Part shown: positions 22,901-43,068 of the stretch, in pieces | Numbering within the stretch: position 1 is the first letter of the stretch | Layout: every line of letters starts with the position of its first letter | Source: a virus | Taxonomy: Duplodnaviria > Caudoviricetes | Reading direction: 5' to 3' (one strand) | IMG/VR virus record: IMGVR_UViG_3300034053_000011 | Coordinates: 1 to 56,168 of that record | Length of the DNA stretch: 56,168 bases | The notes under the pieces: model-generated | What the model saw: only the letters and a program-made list of their open reading frames with translations | Database searches by the model: none | Told to the model about the DNA's origin: nothing | Position numbers and translations under genes: made by a program

Positions 22901-25900
22901 AACCGCAAACAAAAAGTTGCCGTCGCCAAAGGGGCAAAGGCTGGCTTCTCTACGGACAACAAAGTCGGCGTGGCTGTCTCTGCGTCTTACAAGCCTGGCC
23001 GGAACTACGGCACCGTGGTTTATCCGGAGAACGGCGGCAATCTCGTTCGCTTGCATGAGCGGATGCTGGTCATCACCCGCTCCGCGGACTTCGATCGCTT
23101 GCTTGAATCGATCGGGCTCAAGAGCTTCGGCGCGCAGACCACGATCCGCGGGATGTGGGATCGCGAACCGGAATGGACCCAGGTGCTACGCCTGAAGCAA
23201 CTCAACGGCACACCGGCCACGTTCGAGCAGACCCGTGCCGTAGCCAACCTGCTTGGCTGGGCCACACAGCAGGATGCTGCCATCACCTCGATGGTGGTCG
23301 ATAAGCCGGTGGATGGCCAGTACAACATCCCGAGTCTGTACTTCGGCAAGGAAGACGGCACGCCGATGACGGCCGCCGAGATCGATACCGCACTGGCCGC
23401 CTTCGGCAAAGTAACGCCCGGGGCGTCGGTCACGCCAGACGGCAAAACAGTTAAGTTCCTATTCTTCCCGGATGAGAAGTCAAAGCTCAGTGAAACTGAC
23501 CAGCAAATTCAGTTCGGCAAAAATTTGCAGGCTGTTGCGGTTAGCGTTAATCTAAGCCCTGACTACCTGTTGGCATTTACTAACTCGTCTCTGGATGAGT
23601 TCAATAAGAGGACGAACGAAAATGAAAACCGCGGATATCTTGGCCGCAATGAAGGCTACTGGGGGAAGGCTGCTAAAGGACTCGGACCCAGAGCTATACA
23701 AGGCGGAATTGGCGGGCGGACCGTCGATGTCGTTCTCGTCCCGTACATCGCCGCCGTCAGAGCCGAAGGATTCGGATTCGACTACGACCTCTGGCAACAG
23801 CGAAACAAGGCAACCGCAGCAGAAGTAGCCGAGCTTCGCGAGAAGGTCGCTGCCTACGAACAGCAGAACAAGCACGGGCTAAAACCACGTCTGCGCGAAA
23901 CGATCGATATCTCCAATCTCCCGGAGGTGTCGATCGAGGCGCAGATCACCCAGAAAACGAACGAGGCCAACGCCGAGAATCAGCTCGGCATCCTCGACAA
24001 GCTCAAGCAACAATTCCCCAACGCCGTCGAATCCGCCCGTGAGTGGCTCACGATGGCGGCGCACGCCTTTGGCAGCAATGATGTTCCGGTGGCACCGCGC
24101 AACCTGATCAACCTGATGCAGGACAGCGGCGCCGGCATCCTCGAGCAGTTGCGTCAGCTCACCCCGGGGCAGATCAAGGACGCCACCTCTGGCTTCAACA
24201 ACGCGGCCGAGTTCCTCCAGCTTTACACCTCCGGCAAAGTGAAGGTCGAGACCACTGGCAAGCTGATGCTGTGGTCGTTCCTGTCACGCGGGGTCAGCCC
24301 GTACATCCAGGAGGCGATGTTCGTTGATTCCGTGCGTGGTGTCGAGCCGTTCATTCAACAGGCCGCGCGCGGAGAATTTGGTCCGGCAGAGCTGGCAAAT
24401 TACATCGAGTGGGCCGATGGTATTGCCAAGTCCAACGGCGCCGGAGCACCCGGCAATGCCACCAAGCACAACCTGAATGCGTTCGGCAAGAGCTTCTTGA
24501 TCGGGATGTCGCAGAAGGCAGCAAACGGCAAGACCAAACTGCAGCATTTGCATGACATGCTCTCCGACAAATCGATGACTGGCCGCGACATCCGCCGCGA
24601 ATTTGTCAGGATGTCCGAGGGTGTTGGCATCGACAACAAGGTGATGTCATTCACGCTGCTGGTGACTGGGCGCACCGACGTACTGGTGCTGGACCGTATC
24701 CAGATGCGCAATCTGTTCGACGACGGCAGCTTCGCTGGCTACAATCTGTACGACGGCACGCGCAACACCAAGCTGGTAACGGACGCCAAGGACAAAACCA
24801 AGCGGACCATTCACGAGGCTATCAGCCAGCGTGAAGGCGAGACTGACGAGGAGTTCGATAACCGCGTTGATCAAGCTATGCGCAACCTGGCCAAGCAGCT
24901 CAAGATCAAGCCGTCCGCGATCGAAGCGGAACGCGCCATCGAACCTGGCACCGGGTTGGCAAGCATGACCACGGGCGTCCGCGGCTTGATGCTCTACGAG
25001 TTCTTTGAAGACAAGTTGCTCAAGATTCTGCCCGATGTGTATCAGAAGCTAGGCCGCCCACAAGATGCGTCACCGGGGCGATACCACTGGGAATCCTGGG
25101 TGGTGGTGTCAGGTCAAGAGGCCTCTCACGGCACACTGGACTCGCTGCTCTACGAAGCCGAGGGGCAGGAGAATGCGTTTGCTGATGTGACCGTCAAGCA
25201 GGGCGAGTATTCGCAGAAGGACTACGGCGTGCGCTATGGCCGTGACGTCAAGGGCAATCCGTACTACCTCTACGAGAACTCGGCCGGTACCCAGTACAAG
25301 TTGACGCACGACGCCTGGCGCGCTTTGCTGAAGAGCATTGACCGGATCAAGGGTAGGGCTGCCGGGTTCCTGCTGTCTCGAGATGAGCAAGGAAATGCCA
25401 GAACGCAACCGTGGTATTTTGACTCCCGCATCGATCGCGCTAAGATTGACGCCGAACTTCAACAACTAGGAGAGCCGCATGACGGACAAGGAACAGGATC
25501 AGCCCGCCGATCCAATGCGCGGAGCAGTGAATATGATCGAACAGGCTCTGCGGCGGAAGGACGCCCAAGTTATGGTCGAGGTAGAGAAGGAGCGGTCCAG
25601 GCTACGGGAGTCCACTACTCCAAAGCCCAGCGAGGAGAGTTAAGCTCCCGGTTCTTCGGGACCGGGATGAAGGGCGAGGAAGGTGCGCGGATCTCGTATG
25701 CCAAGGACGAGCGGATCAAGAATCGCCTGTACTTCTACATCAACACCGGGCGCGGGGTCGTGCCAGAATCGGACGTTGGCGCCCACGCCCACACGGTAGA
25801 TCTGCAGAACCTCTACGACTTGGACTCCGATCCCCTGGAGCTCTACCCGCGTAGCGATCCAACCAAGGATCAGCGCGACCAGCCTCTCGCCGACGAGCGA

Positions 25901-28900
25901 ATGAACTCGTTCGAGAGCAAGGTTCTCGATGCAGGCTTTGACGGCTACCTCACTCGCGACTTCGGCACCGGCGGCGCCGTGGTCCTGCTCGGTGATCACT
26001 CGGTCCCAGTGCAATACGAGGGCTCCGGCGTCAAGCCCGACGCCCAGGCCTTTTCTGAGCCTGTCACCCTGCGTGGCTGGCGTGAGCTGCAGGACAAGGT
26101 GACCAAGAACAACAGCCTGCCCAACGGCAGTATGATGGGCGCTGACTGGAAGCGCATGATGCCCAAGCTCATGCCCGAGCTGGATGTCTCCCATCTGCCC
26201 GACGAGCGACGCTTCTACAAGGACCAGTTGGTCAAGAGGCCGGAGGCGCGGATGAGCAACCGCCGCGTCGTCGACGTCTTCAAGACCTTGGCAAAAGACG
26301 AGGAGGCGTTCAAGTATCCGGTTCAGACGTCCATGGACCTGGGCGAAGTGGTCAAGGGTATCGACCCGGCTTTCAAGGTGTATCCGGTTGGCAGCGATCA
26401 CTGGTCTGTTGATGAGGCTAAGGCCGACGAGGGGTGGATCATCGTTGCGCCTGACAAGAAGGATGGCTGGGTGTTCCGCAAAGGCAACGACGTCTGGATC
26501 AATGTAGCCTCATTCGGATCTGGGCAGAGCCGCGGGACGGTGGTCTATCAGGCGGTTGGCGACTGGGTCTACAACAACGGCTTCAAGTTCCTTGGCGACC
26601 CGGCGGGCATCTCCTACTTCGGCGCCACCCGGCGGATTGAGAACCTGATCAGCTCGGCGCTCAAGCACGGAACCACAGAACATCTGCGCCCCCACCCGGG
26701 GAACTTCGACCATGTGCCGCCGAATGACCTGGCAGACCACTCAGAAATCAAGTGGGAAGAGGGCGCGCATGATCAAAATTTGGAGAAACTGATCCTGGCG
26801 AGCTATGCTGCAGTTATCGATAGCTACCCGGAGATCAAAGATGTCCGCTTTATACCTGCAACCGGAAGGTTTGAACGAGCTGGAACTCCGCTTGTGGACG
26901 AAGATATTCAGCAGCTCATCGCCGACAACCCCGCCAGCGCTGGTCTTGGCAAGGTATTTGGAGTCTCATCGTTCAAGAGAAGCGTGCTCGTCGATACCGT
27001 TCTACGCGAAACGGGAGGCGAAGGAAGGGGTGGAATACTGGGCGAGCTGGAGCGTCAGCTACAATCCACCGGCTCCGTACCTGGTTTAGGCAAGGTTCTC
27101 TACAGCAATGCCCGCGCTCTACCCAACGACACCCCTGTTAACCGAACTCTCGACGGGGCCAAACTCCAGGCCCTACGTCGTGCTGCGGCTGATCTCGAGC
27201 GACCCAAGGATGGCGTCTACCTCCGCATCACCGAAGACGGTCGTGCCATCGCCACCGGACCCAAGGGCACTCGCATCCCCGAGACTTTCCGTCGTTTCGC
27301 TAGAGACAACGACTTAGCGTTCTTCGCCGAACGCGACATCGGCGTATCCATCTACTCGAAAGCACCGCAAACCACCAAGTCGGAGCCGATGTCCATCGAC
27401 TACCGCGAGAGCGGCGCGCTGTACTTCGGCGAGATGGGTGACGCTAAACTTGATAGAACTGAGCGGACGCGCTTCTCCTTCAAGCGCGTCGACACCAACT
27501 CACCTGAGTTCAAAAAATGGTTCTCAGGGAGCAAGGTGGTTGATGCGAATGGCAAGCCGTTACGGGTGTATCACGGGACAAGGCTGGATTCGCCTATCGA
27601 TCAATTTGATGGGTTGAATTATTCAGGTTGGTTCAGTTCCGCACCAGAAACAGCAAACACCTATGCTGGAGGATATAGTGGAGAGCAAATTGATGAAGGG
27701 TCAGTGTATCCGACGTATCTTGCCATTCGTAATCCGATTGATTTACGCAATCGTGGATTCGATCTGAATGACGATGCGGATATTCAGGGACTTATAGAGG
27801 CTATTCCAGAAGTGGATATGCGCACTTTCAAAACCCATGAAGGAGCATGGGAGGTTTGGGAAATCATCAATAGCCTTGATTTTAGAGAAGCGGCAGAGGC
27901 TGCAGGTTTTGATGGTCTTATCGCTCCGGAAAATAGAGTTACAACATACGCGGCATTCTTCCCCTCTCAAATCAAGTCCGCCATCAGCAACACCGGCGCC
28001 TTCTCCGACACCAATCCTGATATTCGGTATTCGACAAATCGCCTGATCGGCAACTCCGGCCGGCAATACACGCCGGAGCAGGAGGCGATGCACCAGCGTG
28101 TCGGTCGGGTGGTGGATGAGAAGACCATCCTCGAGCGGCTGAAGGATTACATCCAGAAGCGCTGGCGGCAGGGGATCTTCGATCAGTTCGCTCCGTTCTA
28201 CGGGACGCAGGCCTACACCTTGATGCGCTTGTCCAAGGGCTCCACGGGGGCGTTTGAGGCGTTTATGAAGCACGGCAAGCTATCACTGCGTGATGGCGCC
28301 TACGACGCTGACACCACCGGCGGTGTGATCGAGAATGTGTTTCATCCTCTTGGCAAGGAGACGACTGACTTCCTCTACTGGATAGCAGGCAACCGGGCCG
28401 AGCGGTTGGTCGCCGAGGGCAAGGAGCGCCTCTTTACCAATGCCGACATCCAGGCCGCAAAGAGCCTGGCTGATGGCCAGCTCGACTTCGATTACATCCT
28501 GCGCAACGGTACTGTAACGCGCAGCCGCAAGGCCGCCTACATGGACAGCCTGGTCAAGTTCAACGAATTTAACAAGAACGTGATGGACATGGCCGAGCAG
28601 TCAGGGCTGATCGATGGTGCAGCTCGCCACCTATGGGAGCACGAGTTCTACGTTCCGTTCTACAGGGTAATGGAGGACGAGAACACCCGGGCCATGGGGA
28701 TCAAGAAGGGTATTGTCAGGCAGGAGGCTTTCAAGAAGCTGAAGGGCGGCGAGGAACAGCTCGGTGACTTGCTGATGAACACCTTGTTGAACTGGCACCA
28801 CTTGGTTGATGCGGCATCGAAGAATCGCGCGGCCAAGGCGGCGCTCGAGACGGCGCAGCAGTTGGGTATCGCCAGTCCTGCGGTCACCGGCGAGACGAAG

Positions 28901-30529
28901 ACGGTATGGTTCATGGACAACGGGCAGAAGGTTGACTACAAGGTCGATGACCCTGCTGTACTGGAAGCCATCAACGGGCTGCAGTACGCTGGCCTACAGG
29001 GCCCGCTGTGGTCCATCCTGACGGCACCAAAGCATTGGCTCACCGTGGGCGTCACGGCGTCGCCGTTCTTCAAGGTGCGCAACCTGATCCGTGACTCGGT
29101 GCAGGCGATCGCCACTTCGGATCTCAGCTACAACATCGCGAACAATGTGATTGAAGGCGTCAAGCTCACCGCGCGCGATCGGCAGGAATACGTCTCGGCC
29201 CTGGCCGGCGGTGGCCTGATCCGCTTCGGCACCATGCTCGAGGGCAACGAGGCCAAGCGCACCCGGCAACTGATCCGCAAGGGTGCCAAAGACGCTGCCA
29301 TACTGGACAGCCAGGGTGCCTGGACGAAGTTCTACACCGCGGCTTTGGAGCCGGCGATAGAGGCCTACAACGAGCTCGGCAACCGCGGCGAAGAGATCAA
29401 CCGCATGTCGCTCTATAACCAGCTCATCAAGCAAGGCAAGGATCACGCGACGGCCAGCTTGATGGCTCGCGACCTGATGGATTTCAGTCTGCAAGGTTCG
29501 TTCGAGACGATCCGCATCCTGTCCCAGATCGTGCCGTTCTTCAACGCTCGGATGCAGGGCATGTATAAGCTCGGCCGAGCAACGAAGGAGAACCGAGCTC
29601 ACATGGCGACGGTGATCTTCACTGCCGCCCTTGCCAGTCTGGCGCTGATGGGGATGGCCGCCGGTGACGAGGACAAGTGGAAGAAGTGGAAGAAGCGCGA
29701 GGAGTGGGACAAGGCCAGCAACTGGTGGTTCGAGTTCGGCGGCGTGCAGTACCGCATCCCGAAGCCGTTCGAGTTGGGCACCGTGTCGCACATCATGGAA
29801 CGCACCGTCGAGGGTATGTTCGACAAGGAGCGTGATGCGGGCAAACGCACGGCCAAGGCTCTGATGGATGCCGCGATGAATCAGCTCTCAATGAACCCGG
29901 TGCCGCAGGCGTTCAAGCCGATCATCGACCTGTACGCCAACTACGACAGCTTCACCAAGCGCCCGATCGAAACGATGTCGATGCAGCGCCTGGACAAGGA
30001 CCAGCGTTACACGGCGCAGACCTCGATGCCGGCGCGCGCACTATCATCGACGGTGGGCGGTCTGTCACCGGTGCAATATGACCATCTGGTCAGGGCCTAC
30101 TTCGGTTGGCTCGGGGCGCTGTCTGTTGGTACGGCAGACATCGTGGCGCGGTCAGTCAATGATGAGCCGACGAAGCCGGCACTGGACTACTGGAAGTTCG
30201 CCACCGGTGGGCTCCTGCAAGAGGACCAGATTGCCAGTCGCTACACCTCGATGATGTACGACCAGGCGGCCGAGCTCGAGCAGGCGCACGCGACCTACAA
30301 CAAGCTGCGCAAGGACGGCAAACTGGACGAGGCCAAGGAGTACCGTGAGGACAACAAGGACAAGCTCAGCGCCTACCGTTCAGTCGAGAATGTCAAGAAG
30401 CAGGTTGCCACGATCAGCGAACGTATCCGCATGATCGAGCGCAGCAACATTCACCCGGCTGAGAAGCGGATCAAGATTCGAGAGTTGAAGCAGCGCCAGA
30501 GTGACATCGCCTCGAAGTTGAGTCAGTAA
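19937..30529 (+). CDS. Giant polyvalent (ejection/anti-host) protein, 3530 aa: HExxH metallopeptidase-like, HhH-GPD glycosylase-like, two ADP-ribosyltransferase-like, GNAT-like and C-terminal LPD38 domains
   Basis: NHEFSH (22385); GIDNKVMSF...DVLVLDRIQMR (24626-24709); VHYS...RLYFY...GFDGY (25610-25950); FKKWF.GSKVVD.NGKPL.VYHGT...QIKSA..N.G.F....DIRYS (27500-28033); W.....RIPKPFELG (LPD38). Confidence 0.85.
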   Translation: MAELDWSRAIPADNDFRDARDIQMGVEKPKSLDWSAAIEAPEVEQKPSGLLGVGEAIWTGTKNLIEMGRATGNVISGDNAAVEAGRERNLANEANSPLEKRQFMADYMARNKRDRGTDGDVSMLDAIGNLASSAWNNKMGFTQAMAEQAPNAVPVLAMGAAGAAAGAATPIPGGAIIGGFLGMALGNAGIEIGSKAIEKAEGGLTNEESSAALREGSVKGTVIAGVDLATLGIGGKAMKAIGGTAVKAGAMAEAKVLMDAGVDVTNPMAIASRLAADKALAASAKAAGTTAARDALTLGQKAGMAATGMGLETVGEGVGEYFGEMAATGKGNMGDAVLEAFMGAGQSSVETAYNFNKVGRNELDMRNILNAGSTEEAIQHARNALAQKTTAANVTAATDFEVTGDSVINEMAGGLDALQTFNNQTISEPNAAAAVADADQFVPGAVQPVPLEYRNQQIINATPETPPGITPPPYQRGTGGAISDASLPIIGQTPATAPTPAIEGAPKVSMYDQYLAIQAKVAKGATPTAFEAALLKNPPPSPATPTLELPAGKQQAGEGQAKLIQEVQRARQMARSAPQLEQDAAQDELAPAPVTMQTTPVQAPQPVKSVPTTQTQLEQQELVPRTSVKVGGVNADLMSNEELQAIVTNPKANKNTRRAAQEVLSTRFTPQRTDIAELERQQFPDVGETTNAPQATEAPVPALQEEAQPEPGVSRTVAKRSENLERMLRENPAEDRGIMAGEVDINSLGSEVSSLKTKRMGKLKARGIKALMALFGRKVVFFEASKDTAEGIHSDKNNRTIYVNVDSEVDTLAVVNHEFSHSFEKEHPAEYAKAVAATEALLRADGTRALKYATYYNKRDWIADGAVKDENVGDLARELIGDITGNEARTGEFWGDVFNEVALQNPTEARGIITRIRDAVVKFINKVIAATPKGGFQLEGVGFTREDLKEIRDQVVQMAAKSMVKAERVRLGLEQDTAAGDGVVREAANRKQKVAVAKGAKAGFSTDNKVGVAVSASYKPGRNYGTVVYPENGGNLVRLHERMLVITRSADFDRLLESIGLKSFGAQTTIRGMWDREPEWTQVLRLKQLNGTPATFEQTRAVANLLGWATQQDAAITSMVVDKPVDGQYNIPSLYFGKEDGTPMTAAEIDTALAAFGKVTPGASVTPDGKTVKFLFFPDEKSKLSETDQQIQFGKNLQAVAVSVNLSPDYLLAFTNSSLDEFNKRTNENENRGYLGRNEGYWGKAAKGLGPRAIQGGIGGRTVDVVLVPYIAAVRAEGFGFDYDLWQQRNKATAAEVAELREKVAAYEQQNKHGLKPRLRETIDISNLPEVSIEAQITQKTNEANAENQLGILDKLKQQFPNAVESAREWLTMAAHAFGSNDVPVAPRNLINLMQDSGAGILEQLRQLTPGQIKDATSGFNNAAEFLQLYTSGKVKVETTGKLMLWSFLSRGVSPYIQEAMFVDSVRGVEPFIQQAARGEFGPAELANYIEWADGIAKSNGAGAPGNATKHNLNAFGKSFLIGMSQKAANGKTKLQHLHDMLSDKSMTGRDIRREFVRMSEGVGIDNKVMSFTLLVTGRTDVLVLDRIQMRNLFDDGSFAGYNLYDGTRNTKLVTDAKDKTKRTIHEAISQREGETDEEFDNRVDQAMRNLAKQLKIKPSAIEAERAIEPGTGLASMTTGVRGLMLYEFFEDKLLKILPDVYQKLGRPQDASPGRYHWESWVVVSGQEASHGTLDSLLYEAEGQENAFADVTVKQGEYSQKDYGVRYGRDVKGNPYYLYENSAGTQYKLTHDAWRALLKSIDRIKGRAAGFLLSRDEQGNARTQPWYFDSRIDRAKIDAELQQLGEPHDGQGTGSARRSNARSSEYDRTGSAAEGRPSYGRGREGAVQATGVHYSKAQRGELSSRFFGTGMKGEEGARISYAKDERIKNRLYFYINTGRGVVPESDVGAHAHTVDLQNLYDLDSDPLELYPRSDPTKDQRDQPLADERMNSFESKVLDAGFDGYLTRDFGTGGAVVLLGDHSVPVQYEGSGVKPDAQAFSEPVTLRGWRELQDKVTKNNSLPNGSMMGADWKRMMPKLMPELDVSHLPDERRFYKDQLVKRPEARMSNRRVVDVFKTLAKDEEAFKYPVQTSMDLGEVVKGIDPAFKVYPVGSDHWSVDEAKADEGWIIVAPDKKDGWVFRKGNDVWINVASFGSGQSRGTVVYQAVGDWVYNNGFKFLGDPAGISYFGATRRIENLISSALKHGTTEHLRPHPGNFDHVPPNDLADHSEIKWEEGAHDQNLEKLILASYAAVIDSYPEIKDVRFIPATGRFERAGTPLVDEDIQQLIADNPASAGLGKVFGVSSFKRSVLVDTVLRETGGEGRGGILGELERQLQSTGSVPGLGKVLYSNARALPNDTPVNRTLDGAKLQALRRAAADLERPKDGVYLRITEDGRAIATGPKGTRIPETFRRFARDNDLAFFAERDIGVSIYSKAPQTTKSEPMSIDYRESGALYFGEMGDAKLDRTERTRFSFKRVDTNSPEFKKWFSGSKVVDANGKPLRVYHGTRLDSPIDQFDGLNYSGWFSSAPETANTYAGGYSGEQIDEGSVYPTYLAIRNPIDLRNRGFDLNDDADIQGLIEAIPEVDMRTFKTHEGAWEVWEIINSLDFREAAEAAGFDGLIAPENRVTTYAAFFPSQIKSAISNTGAFSDTNPDIRYSTNRLIGNSGRQYTPEQEAMHQRVGRVVDEKTILERLKDYIQKRWRQGIFDQFAPFYGTQAYTLMRLSKGSTGAFEAFMKHGKLSLRDGAYDADTTGGVIENVFHPLGKETTDFLYWIAGNRAERLVAEGKERLFTNADIQAAKSLADGQLDFDYILRNGTVTRSRKAAYMDSLVKFNEFNKNVMDMAEQSGLIDGAARHLWEHEFYVPFYRVMEDENTRAMGIKKGIVRQEAFKKLKGGEEQLGDLLMNTLLNWHHLVDAASKNRAAKAALETAQQLGIASPAVTGETKTVWFMDNGQKVDYKVDDPAVLEAINGLQYAGLQGPLWSILTAPKHWLTVGVTASPFFKVRNLIRDSVQAIATSDLSYNIANNVIEGVKLTARDRQEYVSALAGGGLIRFGTMLEGNEAKRTRQLIRKGAKDAAILDSQGAWTKFYTAALEPAIEAYNELGNRGEEINRMSLYNQLIKQGKDHATASLMARDLMDFSLQGSFETIRILSQIVPFFNARMQGMYKLGRATKENRAHMATVIFTAALASLALMGMAAGDEDKWKKWKKREEWDKASNWWFEFGGVQYRIPKPFELGTVSHIMERTVEGMFDKERDAGKRTAKALMDAAMNQLSMNPVPQAFKPIIDLYANYDSFTKRPIETMSMQRLDKDQRYTAQTSMPARALSSTVGGLSPVQYDHLVRAYFGWLGALSVGTADIVARSVNDEPTKPALDYWKFATGGLLQEDQIASRYTSMMYDQAAELEQAHATYNKLRKDGKLDEAKEYREDNKDKLSAYRSVENVKKQVATISERIRMIERSNIHPAEKRIKIRELKQRQSDIASKLSQ
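22008..22109 (+). CDS. Nested +1-frame ORF A, 33 aa, with a CxxC-x3-H-x5-C motif
   Basis: AGGAG RBS at 21994-21998, then MPLKPQKPRCPHCKKKHSPSRECPAQSQSAPKT*. Confidence 0.45.
   Translation: MPLKPQKPRCPHCKKKHSPSRECPAQSQSAPKT
23622..23828 (+). CDS. Nested +1-frame ORF B, 68 aa
   Basis: AAGAGG RBS, then MKTADILAAMKATGGRLLKDSDPELYKAELAGG...; possible promoter TTGCAG-17-TAATCT at 23525-23553. Confidence 0.5.
   Translation: MKTADILAAMKATGGRLLKDSDPELYKAELAGGPSMSFSSRTSPPSEPKDSDSTTTSGNSETRQPQQK
25419..25446 (+). promoter_or_regulatory. Internal sigma70-like promoter for nested ORF C
   Basis: TTGACT-16-TAAGAT, ending 32 nt before the ATG at 25479. Confidence 0.5.
25479..25643 (+). CDS. Nested +1-frame ORF C, 54 aa, helical and charged
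   Basis: AGGAG RBS, then MTDKEQDQPADPMRGAVNMIEQALRRKDAQVMVEVEKERSRLRESTTPKPSEES*. Confidence 0.55.
   Translation: MTDKEQDQPADPMRGAVNMIEQALRRKDAQVMVEVEKERSRLRESTTPKPSEES
26841..27089 (+). CDS. Nested +1-frame ORF D, 82 aa
   Basis: GGAG RBS, then MSALYLQPEGLNELELRLWTKIF...VLARYLESH...EGVEYWASW... Confidence 0.5.
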   Translation: MSALYLQPEGLNELELRLWTKIFSSSSPTTPPALVLARYLESHRSREACSSIPFYAKREAKEGVEYWASWSVSYNPPAPYLV

Positions 30530-31131: not shown

Positions 31132-31390
31132 TCTCCAACCACTTGTCCAGGTAATGCTTGGCTTTCTCCACATCCTGCCGCTTGTTTCCCTTGTCACGGG
31201 CTAGGTACTTCACTGCGTTCATCAGCAGGTAGTCTGGGAACGACTCAGGGAACCATGACTGCATCGCATCCCAAGGTTGCACATCAAGACGGGTGTAGTG
31301 ATCGCCACCAATCATCGTCTTGGATACTTTATCTTCCAATAGGTGATTGTCTGGATCAATGTAGTCGTTTGGCATTGACGCGAAACTCAT
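31109..31390 (-). CDS. DUF3310-family protein
   Basis: GGDHY...QPWD...NAVKYL.R...DVEKAKHYL motif. Confidence 0.8.
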
Positions 31391-31923
31391 AGCTTAACCC
31401 CCTGCGCAGACGTGTCCTTGTTGTACCGACCGATGGTTGCGTAGCTGCGCTCCTTGGGTACAGGTGCCACCCGATGGAACAACATCTGCCCGATCGGCAT
31501 ACCATGCGTCAGTCGGATACTGTGGTGCCGTAACTCGTTCTTGAGTTCCAACGTCAATGCGCTCCCATGCCAACCCGGATCACAATGACAGGCAAACAGG
31601 TTGTTCAGGCCGGATCGAGCACCACTGGACTTCAGCCGAAACTCTGCACTGATGTCTGACGGCAGGTTGAATATCTCCCGCGTCGCAGCAAGGACAAACT
31701 CACCGGGGCGCAGATCGTAATAGAAGTTGGCGATGGTGATACCAACCGATGCCCACATGCTACGTTGCGCGATATCAACGATATTGTCGCTGTCAGACTC
31801 AATGATGAGTTTGTCCCCCAGATGTACGTCGATGGACGTAGCGTTAATGTCCATCGGATCGACACCCGTGATTACGTTGTCTTCAACTAGACGACATAGT
31901 TCGTTGTAACTAAGCAGCGGCAT
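31387..31923 (-). CDS. dcd: dCTP deaminase
   Basis: SIDVHLG, PGEFVLA.T.E, KSS.AR.GL, DPGW.G..LTLE, IGQMLF, Y...GRY. Confidence 0.9.
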   Translation of the reverse strand: MPLLSYNELCRLVEDNVITGVDPMDINATSIDVHLGDKLIIESDSDNIVDIAQRSMWASVGITIANFYYDLRPGEFVLAATREIFNLPSDISAEFRLKSSGARSGLNNLFACHCDPGWHGSALTLELKNELRHHSIRLTHGMPIGQMLFHRVAPVPKERSYATIGRYNKDTSAQGVKL

Positions 31924-32281
31924 ACTCTTCCTTTCGTTTGAATGGTGTTAACTTGTCAGCACTATTGCGGTTGCGTGACGCGCAGGAGACAGAACAGAAC
32001 TGCTGACCGACCGTTGCCGGTTTATACATGGTTCCACAGTGCTGACAAGGACGTGGTTCACTGTTGGCGTCACGCTGCTTGCGTTTCTTTTCCCGATACC
32101 GGAGCGCCTTGGCACGTTGGCTGTTGTGTAGCCTGATCTCCTTGCACGCTGCACAGCAGTGCCTGACCTTGCTGTGCTTGTTGTTTCTCTCCGGCTCAAA
32201 CTTGCACCCGCACATATTGCACACGATGCGGGTATCCTTCTCGCCGATATTCAGGTTAGATAAAGCCAGTTTCCAAGTCAT
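31910..32281 (-). CDS. Cys-rich zinc-finger protein
   Basis: Two CxxCG..(F/Y).P...C...C modules; likely start MTWKL. Confidence 0.65.
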   Translation of the reverse strand: MTWKLALSNLNIGEKDTRIVCNMCGCKFEPERNNKHSKVRHCCAACKEIRLHNSQRAKALRYREKKRKQRDANSEPRPCQHCGTMYKPATVGQQFCSVSCASRNRNSADKLTPFKRKEEYAAA

Positions 32282-32336
32282 TTCTTGTTCCCTTGCATGA
32301 TTAGCGCGAAGGCACGCCATAGGCCAAACGAGACAC

Positions 32337-32460
32337 CGACAACCTCTCCTTTCGATAATCCCGTTGGGATACGTCTGCTGTATCTAGCTAGTTGTTTGTC
32401 GCGTTTGTGCCTCGCTGGTAGATTGGCGGACGTTTTTTTGGGGTCTACTTCGTGTTGGGC
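32337..32460 (+). other. Degenerate long attC-like hairpin
   Basis: Outer CGACAAC...GTTGGGC boxes; inner arms ACGTCTGC..ATCTA / TAGAT..GCGGACGT; the adjacent minus-strand gene ends ...PNTK* in the R box. Confidence 0.45.
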
Positions 32461-32804
32461 GTCATGTCCTTCGGTGGGAAGAAGCCGTAGCGTGAATGGA
32501 TGTCCAGCACCAGCTTGTCGTAATCAACCTTCACGTCAGGACGGAACGCTGCCATGTGCCGCTGGAACCGCACCAAGAACTCACGCTCTGCCGCCCTCAC
32601 GACCTCTTTCAATATTGAGCGAAACACTGCCTCACCTGGGTGTGACGTGAAGTTAGTCGCCAGCGTGTAAGGGCCGCAACTGGCATATCCAGGGGGTGGT
32701 GTTGGTTTGTACCGCTCAAGCGCAGCGCGGAGACTTGCATTAACCGCCTGCGTGTTAATGAGGTCTTTCACATCATCCTCGGTCAGTTCAATTTGCAACT
32801 TCAT
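32445..32804 (-). CDS. Hypothetical protein between attC-like sites
   Basis: 119 aa; AGGTGA RBS. Confidence 0.65.
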   Translation of the reverse strand: MKLQIELTEDDVKDLINTQAVNASLRAALERYKPTPPPGYASCGPYTLATNFTSHPGEAVFRSILKEVVRAAEREFLVRFQRHMAAFRPDVKVDYDKLVLDIHSRYGFFPPKDMTPNTK

Positions 32805-32824
32805 CTCATCACCTTTGTTTCGCC

Positions 32825-32883
32825 GCCCAACCCATCCTTCAACCGGACCCGCTGAAGCGGGCCGGTTAAGTCAGACGTTAGGT
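32825..32883 (+). other. Integron attC recombination site (59-base element)
   Basis: R'' GCCCAAC, 5-nt spacer, L'' CTT(C)AACC, GG(A)CCCGC-TGAA-GCGGGCC, L' GGTTAAG, 6-nt spacer, R' GTTAGGT. It is exactly 59 bp with both extrahelical bases. Confidence 0.85.
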
Positions 32884-33071
32884 ACCGTTAGCAGTCCCCA
32901 ATGACTGAACCACTCGTGTTGCTGATCTACGTTTAAATCCCACGCCATCTCTAGCGCACGGCAATCAACGACCCCGTTTTCCAGCACGTTTGCCGAAAAA
33001 ACATCATCGTCGTACCAAATTACAATCCGCCCGCGTGGCGGCTTCATGCTCGTGGTTTTAATCCAGTCCAT
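32871..33071 (-). CDS. DUF551-like small protein
   Basis: M.WIK.....PP start and SHW..L..P end; its stop lies within the attC. Confidence 0.6.
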   Translation of the reverse strand: MDWIKTTSMKPPRGRIVIWYDDDVFSANVLENGVVDCRALEMAWDLNVDQQHEWFSHWGLLTVPNV

Positions 33072-33097
33072 TTTCTTGATCTCTATGCCATCCCCAG

Positions 33098-33128
33098 ACT
33101 GCACCGCCCCTGAATTCACACGTTGGGC
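33098..33128 (+). other. attC right half-site (L'-spacer-R')
   Basis: GCCCCTGAATTCACACGTTGGGC, 2 bp from the stop of the neighbouring gene. Confidence 0.6.
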
Positions 33129-33129
33129 C

Positions 33130-33303
33130 TCAACACCCTCCCAACGCTTCCCAAAAAATGCGCCGCATCTCCCGGTCATCCTCTGGTTCGTCTTGCGGAT
33201 CCATCCCTCCGATAGGGTTCTGCATTAACCCTTTAAGCCACTCAGCCTCACGTTCGTTCAGCACAAGCGTTATGGTTTGAGTAATTTTAGTGTTCGTCTG
33301 CAT
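33130..33303 (-). CDS. Hypothetical protein
   Basis: MQTNTKITQTITLVLNEREAEWLK...; AGAGG RBS. Confidence 0.65.
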   Translation of the reverse strand: MQTNTKITQTITLVLNEREAEWLKGLMQNPIGGMDPQDEPEDDREMRRIFWEALGGC

Positions 33304-33316
33304 GATGTTTAATCCT

Positions 33317-33490
33317 CTAAAAATTAACATTTACGTCCATTGCCTTTGGCCGTTGAGCCAGGCGCTTGTTTTTTGCCAGCTTCACCCAAACCCAAGGCGC
33401 CTCAAATAGAAAACGAACAACGCCGTTTGATTTTCCTTCGCGGCTTCGTCGCCGGTTTATCCAGCGCTTTATTTCCTTCGGTGCTTTCAT
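33317..33490 (-). CDS. Basic hypothetical protein
   Basis: MKAPKEIKRW...; GGAGG RBS. Confidence 0.55.
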   Translation of the reverse strand: MKAPKEIKRWINRRRSREGKSNGVVRFLFEAPWVWVKLAKNKRLAQRPKAMDVNVNF

Positions 33491-33547
33491 CGCGTCCTCC
33501 CGTATAACTTTGCGTAATCCATGATGCTCCCCTTTCTCCAAAATGCC

Positions 33548-33587
33548 GTCCAACCCTACGCTCAAGCGGGGCTGCGTCAGGTTGGCC
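33548..33587 (+). other. attC left half-site (R''-spacer-L'')
   Basis: GTCCAAC-CCTAC-GCTCAAGC-GGGGCTGCG; the right arm is deleted. Confidence 0.6.
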
Positions 33588-33611
33588 CGGACGTACTTCA
33601 CGCATGTCTCG

Positions 33612-33926
33612 TTAATCTTGTCCGAGCACCAAGCCATACCGTTGTATTTCTCTATCTACCGCAGCTCCAAAATCGTACAAACTACTATCTGCCGGATTGC
33701 GACGTACTGTAATAGTGAATATAGGGCCGTGCGCATCGGCCTCTTGTTTTACGTTATTCGCCAACCACTGGTATCGATCGGCTGCCTTTTTATAAACGGG
33801 TGCCGCAGGCTCTGCATTTTCTATTTGGGCAATTGCAGCCTGAAGATTGATAATTGTTTGTGTACGTAATACCCCAAAGTCTTGTACATCTTCAAGAACT
33901 TGCTTCATCGTATCTAGTGGTGTCAT
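33612..33926 (-). CDS. Hypothetical protein
   Basis: MTPLDTMKQVLE after AAGGAG; ADRYQWL...D.AVD motif common in phage early genes. Confidence 0.65.
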   Translation of the reverse strand: MTPLDTMKQVLEDVQDFGVLRTQTIINLQAAIAQIENAEPAAPVYKKAADRYQWLANNVKQEADAHGPIFTITVRRNPADSSLYDFGAAVDREIQRYGLVLGQD

Positions 33927-33979
33927 TGCTTCTCCTTTAGTTAGATTAGGTGCCGCCTCCGAGTTTCCACACTCTTTCC

Positions 33980-34252
33980 TTAACACCTTTTGTTACCTTT
34001 GGTTAAAAGGATTTGGAGGCGGCGTTGATCGTAATACTCAAGCAAGCTGCGGGGCAGGTTTTCCCGACCAGCGCCTTTGCTCCTTTCGTAAAAGTGAGGC
34101 CGCTTGCTTGAGTTCGTTTGTAGGGTGAGGGGTTGGTTTACTTGTCCTGCTGCTCTGAGGCACGGGCACTGGAGCATCGCATCTCCCAACCTAGTCCCTT
34201 CCACTGGCCTTTTGGTTCCTCTGGTTTCAAGAACCAACCCCTCGTAAAACAT
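33980..34252 (-). CDS. Hypothetical protein
   Basis: MFYEGLVLE after GAGGAG. Confidence 0.5.
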   Translation of the reverse strand: MFYEGLVLETRGTKRPVEGTRLGDAMLQCPCLRAAGQVNQPLTLQTNSSKRPHFYERSKGAGRENLPRSLLEYYDQRRLQILLTKGNKRC

Positions 34253-34488
34253 CACACTCTCCTCGGCTTCATAGCCTTGCCGTACGACGTTGCGTAGGTG
34301 CAATACTCACCCTCTCTTGTTGATGACGTGCTGATAACCTGCTGCCCTTGAACTACTGGACAGACCTTCTGCACCGGAGGGAGAGGTTTGGCTTCACCCA
34401 ACATCAGACCAAGAGCGAAGCATCCACCGGCAAAACTGGCAATCACGATGGCTTTGTCCCAAGTCATACCATCCTCCGTATTTCGCAA
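34252..34488 (-). CDS. Small protein with an N-terminal transmembrane helix
   Basis: Hydrophobic stretch AIVIASFAGGCFALGLMLG; likely start MTWDK after GGAGG. Confidence 0.55.
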   Translation of the reverse strand: MRNTEDGMTWDKAIVIASFAGGCFALGLMLGEAKPLPPVQKVCPVVQGQQVISTSSTREGEYCTYATSYGKAMKPRRV

Positions 34489-34622
34489 AGCTGCACTTCA
34501 CACAGCCAGCGGTTGTAATCCTGCGTCAGCCGCCGGATATTCTCGGGGTTGCGTCCCGTGGAACGGGTGATAGCTAACTCGAACTCGGTCAGCCACAGCA
34601 TCAGTGCGTAGAAATATTTCAT
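34464..34622 (-). CDS. Hypothetical protein
   Basis: MKYFYALMLW...; coupled to its neighbours. Confidence 0.45.
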   Translation of the reverse strand: MKYFYALMLWLTEFELAITRSTGRNPENIRRLTQDYNRWLCEVQLCEIRRMV

Positions 34623-34906
34623 GGAAGCACCCATTGATCCCCAGACTGACACTTACCGTCGATGTAGAGTTGCCCCGTAACAGAATCCACCAAGGCATCA
34701 CGCGAGGCCCACTTTGCCTCCCACATCTGGCGTGTCGAGACTCCTAGCCGGTAACGCACTTCACGGGTTACTGTGGGGAACTTCTGCCACATATGGAATA
34801 GACCGGAGCGGATCACACGGTTAGGCGTACATTCGGCATCCACATCCTTGTCCGTCAGTATGAGAGGTATCTTCCACACTTTAGACTTGTGTTTGCTAGG
34901 CATCAT
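34619..34906 (-). CDS. Hypothetical protein
   Basis: 95 aa; AAGGAGG RBS. Confidence 0.6.
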   Translation of the reverse strand: MMPSKHKSKVWKIPLILTDKDVDAECTPNRVIRSGLFHMWQKFPTVTREVRYRLGVSTRQMWEAKWASRDALVDSVTGQLYIDGKCQSGDQWVLP

Positions 34907-35181
34907 GTCCTCCTTACAGGTTGTATCACAGGACGCTTGACCGTTACGCCAAACTGCTTACGCATACTAGAGTCAAGCATGTTGAGCATGGCAAATGAGT
35001 CATCGTATTCCTCCTGCATCCCTTTCTCACGATAGCGGATACAGGAGTCACCGAGTTGCTTCAACTGCTCACGGTATGGCCCCGTCAGAGGATGGTTGAG
35101 CGCCAGGTATTCGACCATCTGCACGCCGCTATCTGTGCGCGACAGTACGGTGTGATCGGTGCATTTGCTGTCAGTGGTCAT
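34903..35181 (-). CDS. Hypothetical protein
   Basis: 92 aa; ATGA overlaps. Confidence 0.6.
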   Translation of the reverse strand: MTTDSKCTDHTVLSRTDSGVQMVEYLALNHPLTGPYREQLKQLGDSCIRYREKGMQEEYDDSFAMLNMLDSSMRKQFGVTVKRPVIQPVRRT

Positions 35182-35357
35182 TTTTGATCCCTGATTCGTT
35201 GGTCAATGTACTCGCACAAAGTCAGTTCAGTGTAGTCTGGGTTGAAGTGCAACCCAGGTTCTGCGTTATGGGGCCAGAACCCATCAGGGTCTTTTTTGTC
35301 ATGCTCCATGTAGTAGCAGTTAGTAACTAACCAGTCCATGCGGTCTTTGTCGGTCAT
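35178..35357 (-). CDS. Hypothetical protein (59 aa, not in the ORF track)
   Basis: MTDKDRMDWLVTN...LCEYIDQRIRDQK*; GAGG RBS; overlaps both neighbours by 4 nt. Confidence 0.65.
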   Translation of the reverse strand: MTDKDRMDWLVTNCYYMEHDKKDPDGFWPHNAEPGLHFNPDYTELTLCEYIDQRIRDQK

Positions 35358-37608: not shown

Positions 37609-37880
37609 AAATAATGATCCACCATTGCCTTCCCCGCATCTACCGAGTCAATCACATACACCAGGCACCCGTGGTCACGCAGACGGGTATGCTCCCGCAG
37701 CTGACCCGCAGTGGGTTTCTTACCTGCCTGTTTGAACTCGATGAACACCACTAGGCCGTCAGGACGAATGAATATCTGGTCAGGTACAAATGAATGCCCT
37801 GGTGATGTCCATTTCCGAGTCAGCCACCCTTTTGACTCGGCGTACCCCTTGACCTTCTTCTCTATGTCTTTTTCGACCAC
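37605..37880 (-). CDS. VRR-NUC nuclease
   Basis: E..IE...PD...FIEFK..G.KP...Q; GTG start at 37880 after GGAGG. Confidence 0.85.
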   Translation of the reverse strand: MVEKDIEKKVKGYAESKGWLTRKWTSPGHSFVPDQIFIRPDGLVVFIEFKQAGKKPTAGQLREHTRLRDHGCLVYVIDSVDAGKAMVDHYL

Positions 37881-38368
37881 TATTCCTCCCCACAATGAGT
37901 ATGATAAATTTTATGTGCGGCCTTCCTTGCAGCAATTGCCTCATCTTTAGTTTTGTAAAACCCAAGATATATAAGTTTCTTATTAATATAAATTCTGGCC
38001 TCATAACCTCCGGAATTACTATAAACCCCCTTGACTCCTTGCGTGTTTCTTATAGATCTTTTTGTATTCTGACAATTTTGAGAATATGTGACCTCTCTTA
38101 GATTTTCAATCCTATTATCGTTTCTGACCCTATTTATATGGTCTAAGTACGACATGGGCCATTTCCCGTGGTACATTGCCCATATCACCCGATGAGCAAG
38201 TAACGGTCTTCTATCAATACTCACACCTAAATACCCATCTGGTCTAAGACACCCAGCTACTTTTCCGGCTCTGTCATTCCGCGCACAGCCAGGTCTAGGT
38301 TTCCATATCAACTTACCAGTTGTCGGGTCATAAATAAGAAGTTCATTAAGTCTAGATATTGTAATCAT
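37880..38368 (-). CDS. HNH homing endonuclease with an AP2-like C-terminus
   Basis: AHRVIW...DHINR.RNDNRIENLR; GVKGV...YLG.Y....EA; AT-rich. Confidence 0.9.
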   Translation of the reverse strand: MITISRLNELLIYDPTTGKLIWKPRPGCARNDRAGKVAGCLRPDGYLGVSIDRRPLLAHRVIWAMYHGKWPMSYLDHINRVRNDNRIENLREVTYSQNCQNTKRSIRNTQGVKGVYSNSGGYEARIYINKKLIYLGFYKTKDEAIAARKAAHKIYHTHCGEE

Positions 38369-38380
38369 GCTTGAATTCTA

Positions 38381-40207
38381 TCATGTTAGACACAGTTTCT
38401 TTACCTCATCTATGTACCATTGGTAACTGACCGGCAAGGTGGCATCTGTCAGGTTATTGCAAATGCAGACCTTGCAGTCCTTCTGTACGTCGAACCATCT
38501 GTTCTCGGTCTTACCCTTCAACGGTGGCATGACCTTGAGTAACGTGCCACCAGCATCGCTGATGTAGTAGCGCATGGTGTTCTCGACCTGTCGTTGCCCT
38601 TCTTCGTCGGTGTAGATCAGGCGAGAACTGCGAGGCACCTTGACGCGGATCATGAAGTCCATCAGATCAGGCCATGTGATGACAGTCTCATCAATGGGTT
38701 TGCCATAGACCAGATGCTGCTCGGCAACCTTGGCAACCACAGAAGCAGAACTGTCTTGGTGCCACTCCTTGTCGTACTCATAGGCACCCTTGCGCTTCAC
38801 ATCACCATCTGTCTTGACTGCCAGATAGTTATTAACATCGCGGATGACCATCTTGCTGTACTCGGCATACTCCAAGTTCAGTTTGGTCTGCTTCTCCCAA
38901 TACTTGCAGATCGCATCCACCGTATCCCGCGCACTACGCTTCATCCTGACCGTGATACCATCCGTATTGACCTGTATGATCTCCAGATTCTCATGGATAT
39001 ACATCAAACGCTCGGCAAGCAGGGAGAGCATCATCTGCCCGCCAATGGTAATCTTCATGGTGAATAGGGGATCATAGAAGATGCTGAACTTATCGTTGGA
39101 CTTACCGTATGTCCCGTTGAGCGCCAGCTTGAGCATGGCATTCTCGGCAGTGCCTTTCTTGTATCCTATTCGCTGAGTGCGTAGATCACGATAGACATCA
39201 ACGAAGCGAGGGCCAAGATGCTCAGGGTAATGACTGTGTTCAATAGCGATGGATGGATACAAACTGCTTACATCCATGTCGAGGATCATCCACTCGTCAT
39301 CAGCAATGAACACCTTGTTCTCAACGGAGGCGTGGAGTCCTCCAGTACCATAGACGAATTCGAGTCCCTTGACGGTAGCGACAACATCCTTGAAGACCCC
39401 CTTGGTTTCAGTGATGACCTGGGTGCTGAACCAGTCTCTGACCCGTTGGAACTCAGGGTGTGTGAATTGCACCCATGTGGGAACACACTCTTGAAGGTGG
39501 ATGAATTCGCGATTTGTTTGGCGTGGAACTCGACCCTCAGTAGTGTATGTGTAACACTGGACACCAACCCGTTCCAGTTCCATCTGGAAGATCTCAGCAC
39601 CGATCTTTGTGTCGTTGTGGTTAATGAAATCCCTGCCATGCTTGACTGTCAGTTCCTCACGGAACCTGATCTGCTCCAATGACTGATGATAGAACTGCTT
39701 GGTTGCCTTAACGTCATAGGCGTTATAGTCATGTAGCACTTTAATTTGGTCAGGATTCAACGTAGTACCAACAGGGAACGGCAGATCGCTAATGTTGTCC
39801 ATACGCATCTGGAATTCCAGTGCCTTCAACGATGTCGTTCTCGCCTTGTTGTCAAAGTGGTGGATCTTGTAGAGATCGACCTGGGGGATAAGACGATCTG
39901 ACGGGTAGATCATTCCTTCAAACTTGTTGTCCGACCCAATGATCGACTGCGCCTTGTTATAGAGCGCCAAAGCGTTTGTGCGCCCCTTGAGCAGTAAATG
40001 GAGGATGGGGTAATCGAACCCGACATTGTTGAACCCCACTAGCCTCGCATCAATCGAGATCAGATATCGACACCACTCAAGGATCTGGTCGTAGTCATCA
40101 CGATAGTCGCTGATCTCAAAAGACCAAGTAAGAGGTAGACCCGAATGCTCCGCTGCCAGAGTGAAGCAATTCGGGTAGACTTCCGAATCGTACACAATGT
40201 CAATCAT
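38381..40207 (-). CDS. Family B DNA polymerase with 3'-5' exonuclease
   Basis: Exonuclease motifs DSE, GFNN..FD and YN..DV; polymerase motifs DVSSLYPS, KLALNGTYG and NTDG. Confidence 0.92.
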   Translation of the reverse strand: MIDIVYDSEVYPNCFTLAAEHSGLPLTWSFEISDYRDDYDQILEWCRYLISIDARLVGFNNVGFDYPILHLLLKGRTNALALYNKAQSIIGSDNKFEGMIYPSDRLIPQVDLYKIHHFDNKARTTSLKALEFQMRMDNISDLPFPVGTTLNPDQIKVLHDYNAYDVKATKQFYHQSLEQIRFREELTVKHGRDFINHNDTKIGAEIFQMELERVGVQCYTYTTEGRVPRQTNREFIHLQECVPTWVQFTHPEFQRVRDWFSTQVITETKGVFKDVVATVKGLEFVYGTGGLHASVENKVFIADDEWMILDMDVSSLYPSIAIEHSHYPEHLGPRFVDVYRDLRTQRIGYKKGTAENAMLKLALNGTYGKSNDKFSIFYDPLFTMKITIGGQMMLSLLAERLMYIHENLEIIQVNTDGITVRMKRSARDTVDAICKYWEKQTKLNLEYAEYSKMVIRDVNNYLAVKTDGDVKRKGAYEYDKEWHQDSSASVVAKVAEQHLVYGKPIDETVITWPDLMDFMIRVKVPRSSRLIYTDEEGQRQVENTMRYYISDAGGTLLKVMPPLKGKTENRWFDVQKDCKVCICNNLTDATLPVSYQWYIDEVKKLCLT

Positions 40208-40646
40208 ATTTTAGTTCTGACCAACAATTAGGTTTCGGTGGGTAAACATAACCCCCGTCAGATCTCCCTTCACACCAAACTTTTATCCTACTAATTGTCA
40301 CACCAAATATCTTCGCTGCATGACTCAGACTTGCATATCTAATACCATCGACGAACCACCACTTAGCAATTCGTGTGTTTCTCATTTGGGTAGTCTTATC
40401 GGCCCAATAACAATTGTCTTTCGAATATCCTTTTGTATTATCCTTACGATCAATTTGATGGTTAGGTGTTGGTCGTAACCCCATATCATGGATGAACCGA
40501 ATAGGATCGTCCCATTCAGGACATATAGATATATGGGCGTAATAATATGAATCGTGTCTACTTGGGTTATTACACCTCTGACGCATATTGATCCATACTC
40601 CGTACTCAGGGGTAAACCTTAACCCATGTTTATATCCTTTGGGCAT
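40200..40646 (-). CDS. HNH-like homing endonuclease
   Basis: W.NMRQRC.NP, IC.EW, IDRKDN.KGY..DNC.W; AT-rich. Confidence 0.8.
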   Translation of the reverse strand: MPKGYKHGLRFTPEYGVWINMRQRCNNPSRHDSYYYAHISICPEWDDPIRFIHDMGLRPTPNHQIDRKDNTKGYSKDNCYWADKTTQMRNTRIAKWWFVDGIRYASLSHAAKIFGVTISRIKVWCEGRSDGGYVYPPKPNCWSELKYD

Positions 40647-42608: not shown

Positions 42609-43068
42609 TTTTCAATGCCTCGACGTTATCGAACAATACCTGATACTGTTCCGGCTTGACCTCGGAGATGTTCTTAATCCCCATCTTGTCCAGCACTCCT
42701 TGGATCTGAGCCCCCTTCGTCGGCCCCATCACCTGATAAACGCCCATGATCCAACCCACCATTTCCTTCTGAGTCGTGAAGGGCGCATGGGTGGGTTTAG
42801 CGGGTGCTGCGGCAGTCTCGACCACCACAGGGGATACAGTAACAGTCACGGGTGTAGGAGTCTCGACTACCACGGGTGCCGGTGCAGGGGTTGCCACGGG
42901 TGCCGGCGCGGGAGTTGCCACGGGTGCAGGTGCTGGTGTAGGATTAGACTCGGCAACTTTCTCTGCCACCTTCTCGGCAACAGCGGGAGGGAGTTTCTCG
43001 ATCAGCATCTTGAGAACTTGAGTGTTAGCCAGGATCGCTTCAGCAATTACGATGATTTCGGATTTCAT
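42598..43068 (-). CDS. Hypothetical replication-cluster protein with a Pro/Ala linker
   Basis: Three TPAPAPVA units (24-bp repeats); C-terminal G..NISEV.PEQY motif. Confidence 0.7.
   Translation of the reverse strand: MKSEIIVIAEAILANTQVLKMLIEKLPPAVAEKVAEKVAESNPTPAPAPVATPAPAPVATPAPAPVVVETPTPVTVTVSPVVVETAAAPAKPTHAPFTTQKEMVGWIMGVYQVMGPTKGAQIQGVLDKMGIKNISEVKPEQYQVLFDNVEALKNGA

Follow-up and report, generated by a model that had tools for sequence, protein, structure and literature searches.

A probable single integron gene cassette, closed by a 59-base attC site, in the genome of an integrase-less tailed phage

The usual view of integron cassettes is that plasmids and transposons carry them from one bacterial integron to another. 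The case considered here is that of an apparently complete cassette, with both recombination junctions, in an apparently virulent phage. The window, i.e., the whole 56,168-base stretch of DNA that was analyzed, is an entire IMG/VR virus record (IMGVR_UViG_3300034053_000011) with direct terminal repeats, and it contains a 59-base sequence resembling the recombination site of such cassettes (attC). This locus raises three questions: (i) is the sequence a genuine attC; (ii) does it close a gene cassette; and (iii) how did that cassette come to lie in a phage?

The window encodes the genes of a tailed phage, namely, portal, major head protein, tail, tail-fibre, large terminase, and endolysin, as well as a minus-strand replication block comprising a DUF2800 nuclease, an Enc34-type single-stranded DNA-binding protein, a DNA polymerase, an SNF2 helicase, and a dCTP deaminase. 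The DNA polymerase gene lies between two HNH endonuclease genes, possibly of the homing type, and a 251-aa pentapeptide-repeat protein stands at the start of the minus-strand block (intervals noted for this group, 37880-38368, 40200-40646, and 43065-43820 [-]). A 3530-aa open reading frame at 19937-30529 (+) matches PHROG families of unknown function only, and these in its last third only. A search for tyrosine recombinases (PF00589) returned 0 matches at E<=0.01 and no IntI, in agreement with the initial annotation, which had called the phage integrase-less. Likewise, Pfam, PHROG, and PF00589 searches recognized no lysogeny genes in the genome. Comparison with a phage collection gave 0 near matches and one distant match, restricted to the helicase. 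Both the attC site and the cassette described below are located in the accessory small-gene region of the phage.

As listed in Table 1, the parts that had initially been read from the letters, i.e., the R''/R' and L''/L' boxes and the 5- and 6-nt spacers, are all present in the sequence. Furthermore, in the minimum-energy DNA fold predicted for the minus strand, the R boxes and the L boxes are paired and exactly a G and a T are bulged, confirming the unpaired C in L'' and the unpaired A four bases further on that had been proposed for the top strand. More specifically, the minus-strand fold had an energy of -14.2 kcal/mol (z -3.0; 2 of 200 shuffles were equally good), and the plus-strand fold was poorer than this at -12.7 kcal/mol (0 of 200 shuffles were as good). 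The share of the bottom-strand ensemble with both boxes paired was 0.41, as compared with 0.03-0.58 for four class 1 sites; the constraint used for this measure suits sites with 5- and 6-nt spacers only, and the zeros that it gave for TJE1, L013, and L216 are meaningless. L boxes, an unpaired central spacer, and bottom-strand extrahelical bases opposite the AAC arm are among the attC features given in PMC5027507. In the window, we found these features together with inverse core boxes, a covariance-model match, and an arrangement that follows cassette logic. The description of the 59-bp site as intact is thus right as far as sequence can show, and competence as an IntI substrate is plausible for a site of this predicted structure.

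Table 1. Positions of the attC site, its parts, the cassette, and the adjoining genes in the window (the slash marks the point of exchange)
Feature	Position	Strand	Remark
attC site	32825-32883	+ (top strand)	59 nt; sequence and covariance models
R'' GCCCAAC	32825-32831	+	fits RYYYAAC
5-nt spacer, R'' to L''	32832-32836	+	sequence
L'' box	32837-32843	+	unpaired C at 32840
Second unpaired base, A	32847	+	four bases past the end of L''
Inner stem, 5 bp	32848-32852 / 32857-32861	+	sequence
Loop, 4 nt	32853-32856	+	sequence
L' box	32865-32870	+	sequence
6-nt spacer, L' to R'	32871-32876	+	sequence
R' GTTAGGT	32877-32883	+	fits GTTRRRY
Predicted crossover	between 32877 and 32878	attC	predicted
Left junction G/TTGGGC	32454-32460	+	G from phage target; TTGGGC, R' remnant
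Inferred gene cassette, 423 bp	32455-32877	+	TT of left core to G of R'
p5, 119 aa, cassette cargo gene	32445-32804	- (attC bottom strand)	open reading frame
p6, orphan phage gene, 102 aa as open reading frame (82 aa as called in database)	32871-33179	-	open reading frame

We assessed the site against chance with a rule-based scanner of our own and with covariance models. The scanner reported 1 site in the window, and in 20 Mb of Markov random sequence it reported 2 much weaker sites among 1152 R''/R' pairs. Our first covariance model (R1) was trained on five 60-nt sites, i.e., the 4 class 1 aadA-type attC sites of the phage-plasmid P1 L-II and attC2 of TJE1, taken as accepted attC sites from records named in Qi 2023 (PMC9892861), with the window phage and its relatives left out of training. 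R1 gave the window site 41.2 bits (E 1e-8, plus strand), and this was the sole match in the window at E<=10. Sites held out of training all scored below it, including attC1 of TJE1 (36.4 bits), a chloramphenicol-resistance-gene site (31.9 bits), and Vibrio sites (13-18 bits); TJE1 attC1 has the same sequence as a site that was recombined with IntI1 according to Qi 2023 (PMC9892861). A second model (R2), built from the family alignment described below, gave the window site 64.2 bits on the plus strand and 14.0 bits on the minus strand, a score that is partly circular because the loci behind R2 were fished with a motif from the window site; R1 is the independent test. With filters off, R2 detected no second attC in the window at E<=1, and its match at 33548-33587 (10.6 bits, E 2.2), which fails the junction test, was taken as chance. 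A BLAST search of plasmids with the attC site returned chance-level matches of 26-28 nt only, none of them to a known attC.

IntI cuts R' between G and TT, and a cassette therefore starts with TTxxxx, the inverse of its own R''. A sequence of this kind is present to the left of the attC site, since the GTTGGGC of the left junction (Table 1) is the exact reverse complement of R'' and lies 371 nt upstream of it. Under a local Markov model, the chance of finding GTTGGGC within 400 nt upstream is 0.026. The heptamer is nonetheless locally frequent, with 4 copies on this strand between 29.8 and 33.2 kb, one of them 239 nt to the right of attC; because of this frequency, the left junction of the window taken alone is only moderately secure, and weaker than the Markov estimate. 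The copies at 29773, 30804, 32454, and 33122 are four of the five on the plus strand and fall within 3.4 kb, in contexts that are otherwise unalike. The same rule was calibrated elsewhere by looking for a matching core 80-1000 nt upstream: among first-detected sites, 34 of 44 in viral loci had one, as opposed to 2 and 3 of 44 with two control 7-mers, and 8 of 22 in bacterial loci had one, as opposed to 5 and 3 of 22 with the controls. The bacterial result counts against the explanation that we prefer (see below). No remnant of a preceding attC was detected to the left of the cassette, either by R2 with filters off or in folds. In base composition the cassette is not distinctive (GC 0.558, versus 0.50 in the surrounding gene block), and we discarded composition as a mark of foreign origin.

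Similar sites are present in relatives of the phage. Among 82 related or fetched loci, R1 matched L047 (42.7 bits) and L013 (27.6 bits), and in both of these the region of the phage and the orientation with respect to the helicase are as in the window; its match in L018 (13.8 bits, E 7.7) is at chance level. We dropped an earlier notion that the window attC is unique to this phage: the blank result of the strict scanner in relatives was a false negative, and the covariance models found L047 and L013. L047 carries three sites on one strand (R2, 62, 33.7, and 34.8 bits) in which every R'' after the first is exactly inverse to the R' before it; the inverse core of the first site is 224 nt upstream. 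These three tiny cassettes (306, 326, and 297 bp; L047:9190-10125) form a perfect R'/R'' chain. L013 carries one site (R2, 54.3 bits), with its inverse core 305 nt upstream and a right junction that reads G/ATAACG. Accordingly written, the right junctions are G/TT in the window and in L047 and G/AT in L013, all fitting GWT, the motif of IntI insertions outside att sites (preprint 10.1101/2022.09.11.507474). The 6-7 bases before the left junction are also alike in the left flanks of the window (CTTCGT-G; 32440-32454), L013 (CTCTGC-G), and L047 (CTTCGGC-G), and they resemble the L'-R' spacer of the window attC family; they could be left over from an older site or reflect a preference for certain targets.

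The cassettes of these relatives recur elsewhere. We found that the 355-bp cassette of L013 (gene plus attC; L013:10686-11047) recurs with 88-97% identity in four viral contigs (L110, L122, L104, and L092) and in a bacterial or archaeal genome record (L269), and that the first L047 cassette recurs on L159 with 98.7% identity. Homology to the L013 cassette begins 2-7 nt ahead of the left G and stops within 0-4 nt of the right G; the L269 locus starts too late to include the left cassette end. L110, L122, L104, and L092 have no helicase relative, and the same cassettes therefore occur in unrelated backgrounds. By sequence comparison, then, the sibling cassettes are shown to be mobile units. Among 80 helicase-related loci, an attC was present downstream of the helicase in 2 of the 48 with at least 3 kb there, and L025 has a weaker match (25.7 bits) upstream of the helicase. 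Since attC sites are this sparse among relatives and the region 31387-35357 has no homologue in the 80 related loci, the cassettes are sporadic additions to a hypervariable region rather than a conserved part of the phage.

A wider sequence family was retrieved with a 20-nt motif, the 5' side of the sites common to the window, L047, and L013. Searching IMG/VR viral contigs with this query gave at least 80 loci (L088-L167), with approximately 16 chance matches expected by estimate. R1 made 195 matches at E<=1 among the 80 viral loci listed (284 kb), and among these matches there were often 4-8 per strand, 200-1000 bp apart, i.e., cassette arrays. When 50 of the listed motif-bearing viral contigs were searched, IntI above the curated cut-off was present in one; one of the same 50 is related to the window phage (its helicase is 73% identical), and distant matches to the helicase were present in two others. 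By chance alone, the motif is expected approximately 140 times in bacterial and archaeal genomes; among the matches listed there, 38 of 80 loci contain attC matches at E<=0.001. By their titles, most of the 38 are Burkholderiales, Rhodocyclales, or Nitrosomonadales types (Roseateles, Acidovorax, Undibacterium, Accumulibacter, Sulfuritalea, and Sulfuricella), and the rest are Xanthomonadales types (e.g., Rhodanobacteraceae) and a few delta-proteobacterial, Acidobacteriota, and Nitrospirota bins. IntI exceeded the curated cut-off in 5 of 5 tested genomes from attC-bearing bacterial loci, examples being those titled Accumulibacter, Acidovorax, Roseateles, Sulfuritalea, and Rhodanobacteraceae. In the family alignment (150 rows), which was fitted to the model and so favors structure, 93.2% of cells were paired versus 22-46% with partners slid, and there were 548 double-sided changes versus 161 in shuffles. 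A pattern for a variant of the window attC of the same size matched 0 viral contigs. On one 55,216-bp contig (L136 and L161), the same attC array occurs twice with identical scores, 35,310 bp apart, and this "complete" contig may represent a genome of approximately 35 kb in concatemeric form. In summary, the covariance models, the presence of the family in real arrays, and the matching cassette junctions strongly support the 59-base site being a genuine integron attC.

The gene inside the cassette departs from the usual pattern. A canonical cassette holds a promoterless top-strand open reading frame that ends at or in attC, whereas p5 lies on the bottom strand and is thus reversed, with its start 20 nt from attC; in addition, its last two codons and its stop fall outside the cassette. 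Both the orientation and the position of the stop count against the explanation that we prefer (see below), and so does the lack of IntI and of a second attC in the genome. Reversed genes are common in the window attC family. By the longest-ORF rule, genes between attC sites were reversed versus same-strand at 33:9 in viral arrays and 14:21 in bacterial arrays; under a GC3 criterion, the ratios were 33:18 and 8:9, respectively (Fisher p 0.26), and a viral excess of reversed genes was therefore rejected as not robust, its signal being lost under that criterion. No Pfam or PHROG family matched p5; the Atlas clusters nearest to it hold hypothetical proteins of viruses, a lead only, and indicated no function. 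The one homologue of p5, P0002, is 86% identical. Substitutions between the two by codon position are 12/5/24, and 19 of the changed codons are synonymous and 16 non-synonymous, out of 117; because of this pattern, we take the p5 frame to be coding. To the right of the cassette, the stop of p6 (TGA, 32873-32871) lies inside the attC L'-R' spacer. As read from the sequence, p6 would run into ACG AAG TAG if the cassette were removed, ending ...VPNTK instead of ...VPNV. The insertion lies 8 nt ahead of the original stop, at next to no cost to the phage. No relatives of p6 were found.

Taken together, we consider it probable that a bona fide attC closes a single complete cassette of the SALIN type here, and that the IntI of a host put this cassette into a GTT site of the phage. 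The setting would have been infection of a host with a chromosomal integron, in which a circular cassette, by way of its folded bottom strand, could have been recombined by IntI into a GTT of the double-stranded phage DNA. Insertion would have fallen just before the p6 stop, leaving G/TTGGGC on the left and G/TTAGGT on the right. Since p5 lies on the strand of the phage early genes, it could be transcribed along with them. In an IntI-expressing host, attC could then be cut at the predicted crossover (Table 1), and the cassette might leave, further cassettes might dock (attC x attC), or phage DNA might fuse with a host att site. We infer that the inserter was a host IntI, that the host was Burkholderiales-like and carried this attC family, and that the site is still active.

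An alternative that we regard as unlikely is that a genuine attC arrived by ordinary mosaic recombination, between phages or between phage and host, rather than by IntI acting on the window phage, with the upstream GTTGGGC being a coincidence or a native part of p5. The main result in its favor concerns the p5 homologue P0002, which is encoded on L083, a 1155-bp metagenome contig with no attC. Homology between L083 and the window begins approximately 15 nt outside the left junction and stops 14 nt short of the ATG, and the L083 copy keeps GCCCAAC in its coding end; p5 therefore also moves, or has moved, by ordinary phage mosaic recombination. L083 is thus the chief result against a clean IntI history of p5, and it is compatible with an origin not involving IntI or with mosaic exchange at a later time. 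The local frequency of GTTGGGC also agrees with mosaic arrival, as does the lack of homologues of the region 31387-35357, which is to be expected of accessory mosaic DNA. Against this, a cassette carried in by mosaic exchange is at odds with the clean left flank, where no preceding attC has left a remnant; the junction rule holds in both relatives as well as in most of the viral first sites; and the cassettes of the relatives end at the junctions.

The initial annotation had suggested that the site could let the whole phage genome recombine into a host integron, and a reading of the lone attC as a phage attachment site, by which the circularized genome integrates through host IntI, appears to us very improbable. 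It is true that the attC looks recombination-competent, and that Qi 2023 (PMC9892861) describes a Vibrio prophage with excision points in two attC sites. However, no lysogeny genes were recognized, and no result came to the support of the suggestion: a sample of 401 genomes from the order to which Acidovorax lacteus belongs contained relatives of the capsid protein in 6, at no more than 48% identity, and no close prophage. In addition, the rarity of attC downstream of the helicase among relatives speaks against a conserved element of the life cycle. Our data point to an integron cassette entering a phage, the opposite of a phage entering an integron. It is scarcely credible, finally, that an ordinary intergenic hairpin (a terminator or an RNA-processing site) fits the attC consensus by chance, because although the hairpin sits between two co-directional genes and its folding energy is outside the 30 strongest 60-nt windows of the genome, its stem is followed by no T/U run on either strand (an intrinsic terminator has a G+C-rich stem directly before a T run), the terminator-like sites identified in 28-46 kb do not include it, and its E value with R1, the strong covariation of its family, and the homologous sites in cassette arrays all contradict such an origin.

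It is already known that phage-borne attC sites recombine with IntI1 (Qi 2023, PMC9892861) and that isolated cassettes and insertion at GWT occur in bacteria (Loot preprint); the addition here is a single, complete integron cassette in an integrase-less phage. Bacterial integron cassettes thus also reach the lineage of the window phage, and unrelated viral contigs share sibling cassettes with one another and with a genome record of bacterial or archaeal origin, which supports phages as carriers, and possibly users, of cassettes. We offer as a tentative extension, itself rather doubtful, that this lineage and many uncultured phages are regular users of the cassette pool: phage-gene cassettes set for phage promoters would be shuttled by host IntI from phages to bacterial integrons and back, and a lone attC would serve as a landing pad for arrays such as the three cassettes of L047.

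With respect to known systems, attC in phages is the subject of a report by Qi, Rajabal, Ghaly, Tetu, and Gillings (Qi 2023, PMC9892861), besides which our search found no further paper on attC in phage or virome data within the literature collection that was covered. According to that report, clusters of attC sites (CALINs) are present in 21 of 10,705 phage genomes, and IntI1 recombined 5 of 6 phage attC sites as readily as attCaadA7. The window resembles these CALINs in having attC in an apparently virulent phage. Because at least two attC sites per phage were required in the survey as published (Qi 2023, PMC9892861), single cassettes were excluded by design, which suggests that surveys of this kind miss part of the cassette traffic. 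The window has neither IntI with attI nor two or more attC sites, and is accordingly neither a complete integron nor a CALIN.

In architecture, the site belongs with the aadA-type attC sites of class 1 integrons (attCaadA7/aadA1, the "59-base element"). Both are of the same length class (59 versus 60 nt), have RYYYAAC/GTTRRRY boxes and spacers of 5 and 6 nt, and carry the same two extrahelical bases at the same places; in both, the bottom strand folds better than the top, and there is a common layout of 7 + 5 + (3 bp, bulged C, 6 bp, bulged A, 5-6 bp, loop) + 6 + 7. In contrast to aadA-type sites, the window site is phage-borne and single, has cargo on the opposite strand, and lies near no IntI, attI, or Pc promoter; its sequence is only partly alike.

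In organization, the closest counterparts are the SALINs, which Loot and co-workers describe as isolated cassettes inserted by IntI at genomic attG sites (GWT) (10.1101/2022.09.11.507474). The window likewise has a single attC with a coding sequence, no integrase nearby, a G/TT junction fitting GWT, and insertion at the very end of a gene, a place of little harm. SALINs are described in that preprint from bacterial chromosomes, whereas the replicon here is a phage and the cargo is reversed. Finally, the sedentary chromosomal integrons of Burkholderiales, Rhodocyclales, and Xanthomonadales types hold arrays beside an integrase, unlike the window with its one cassette and no integrase, and their attC sites belong to the same sequence family as that of the phage.
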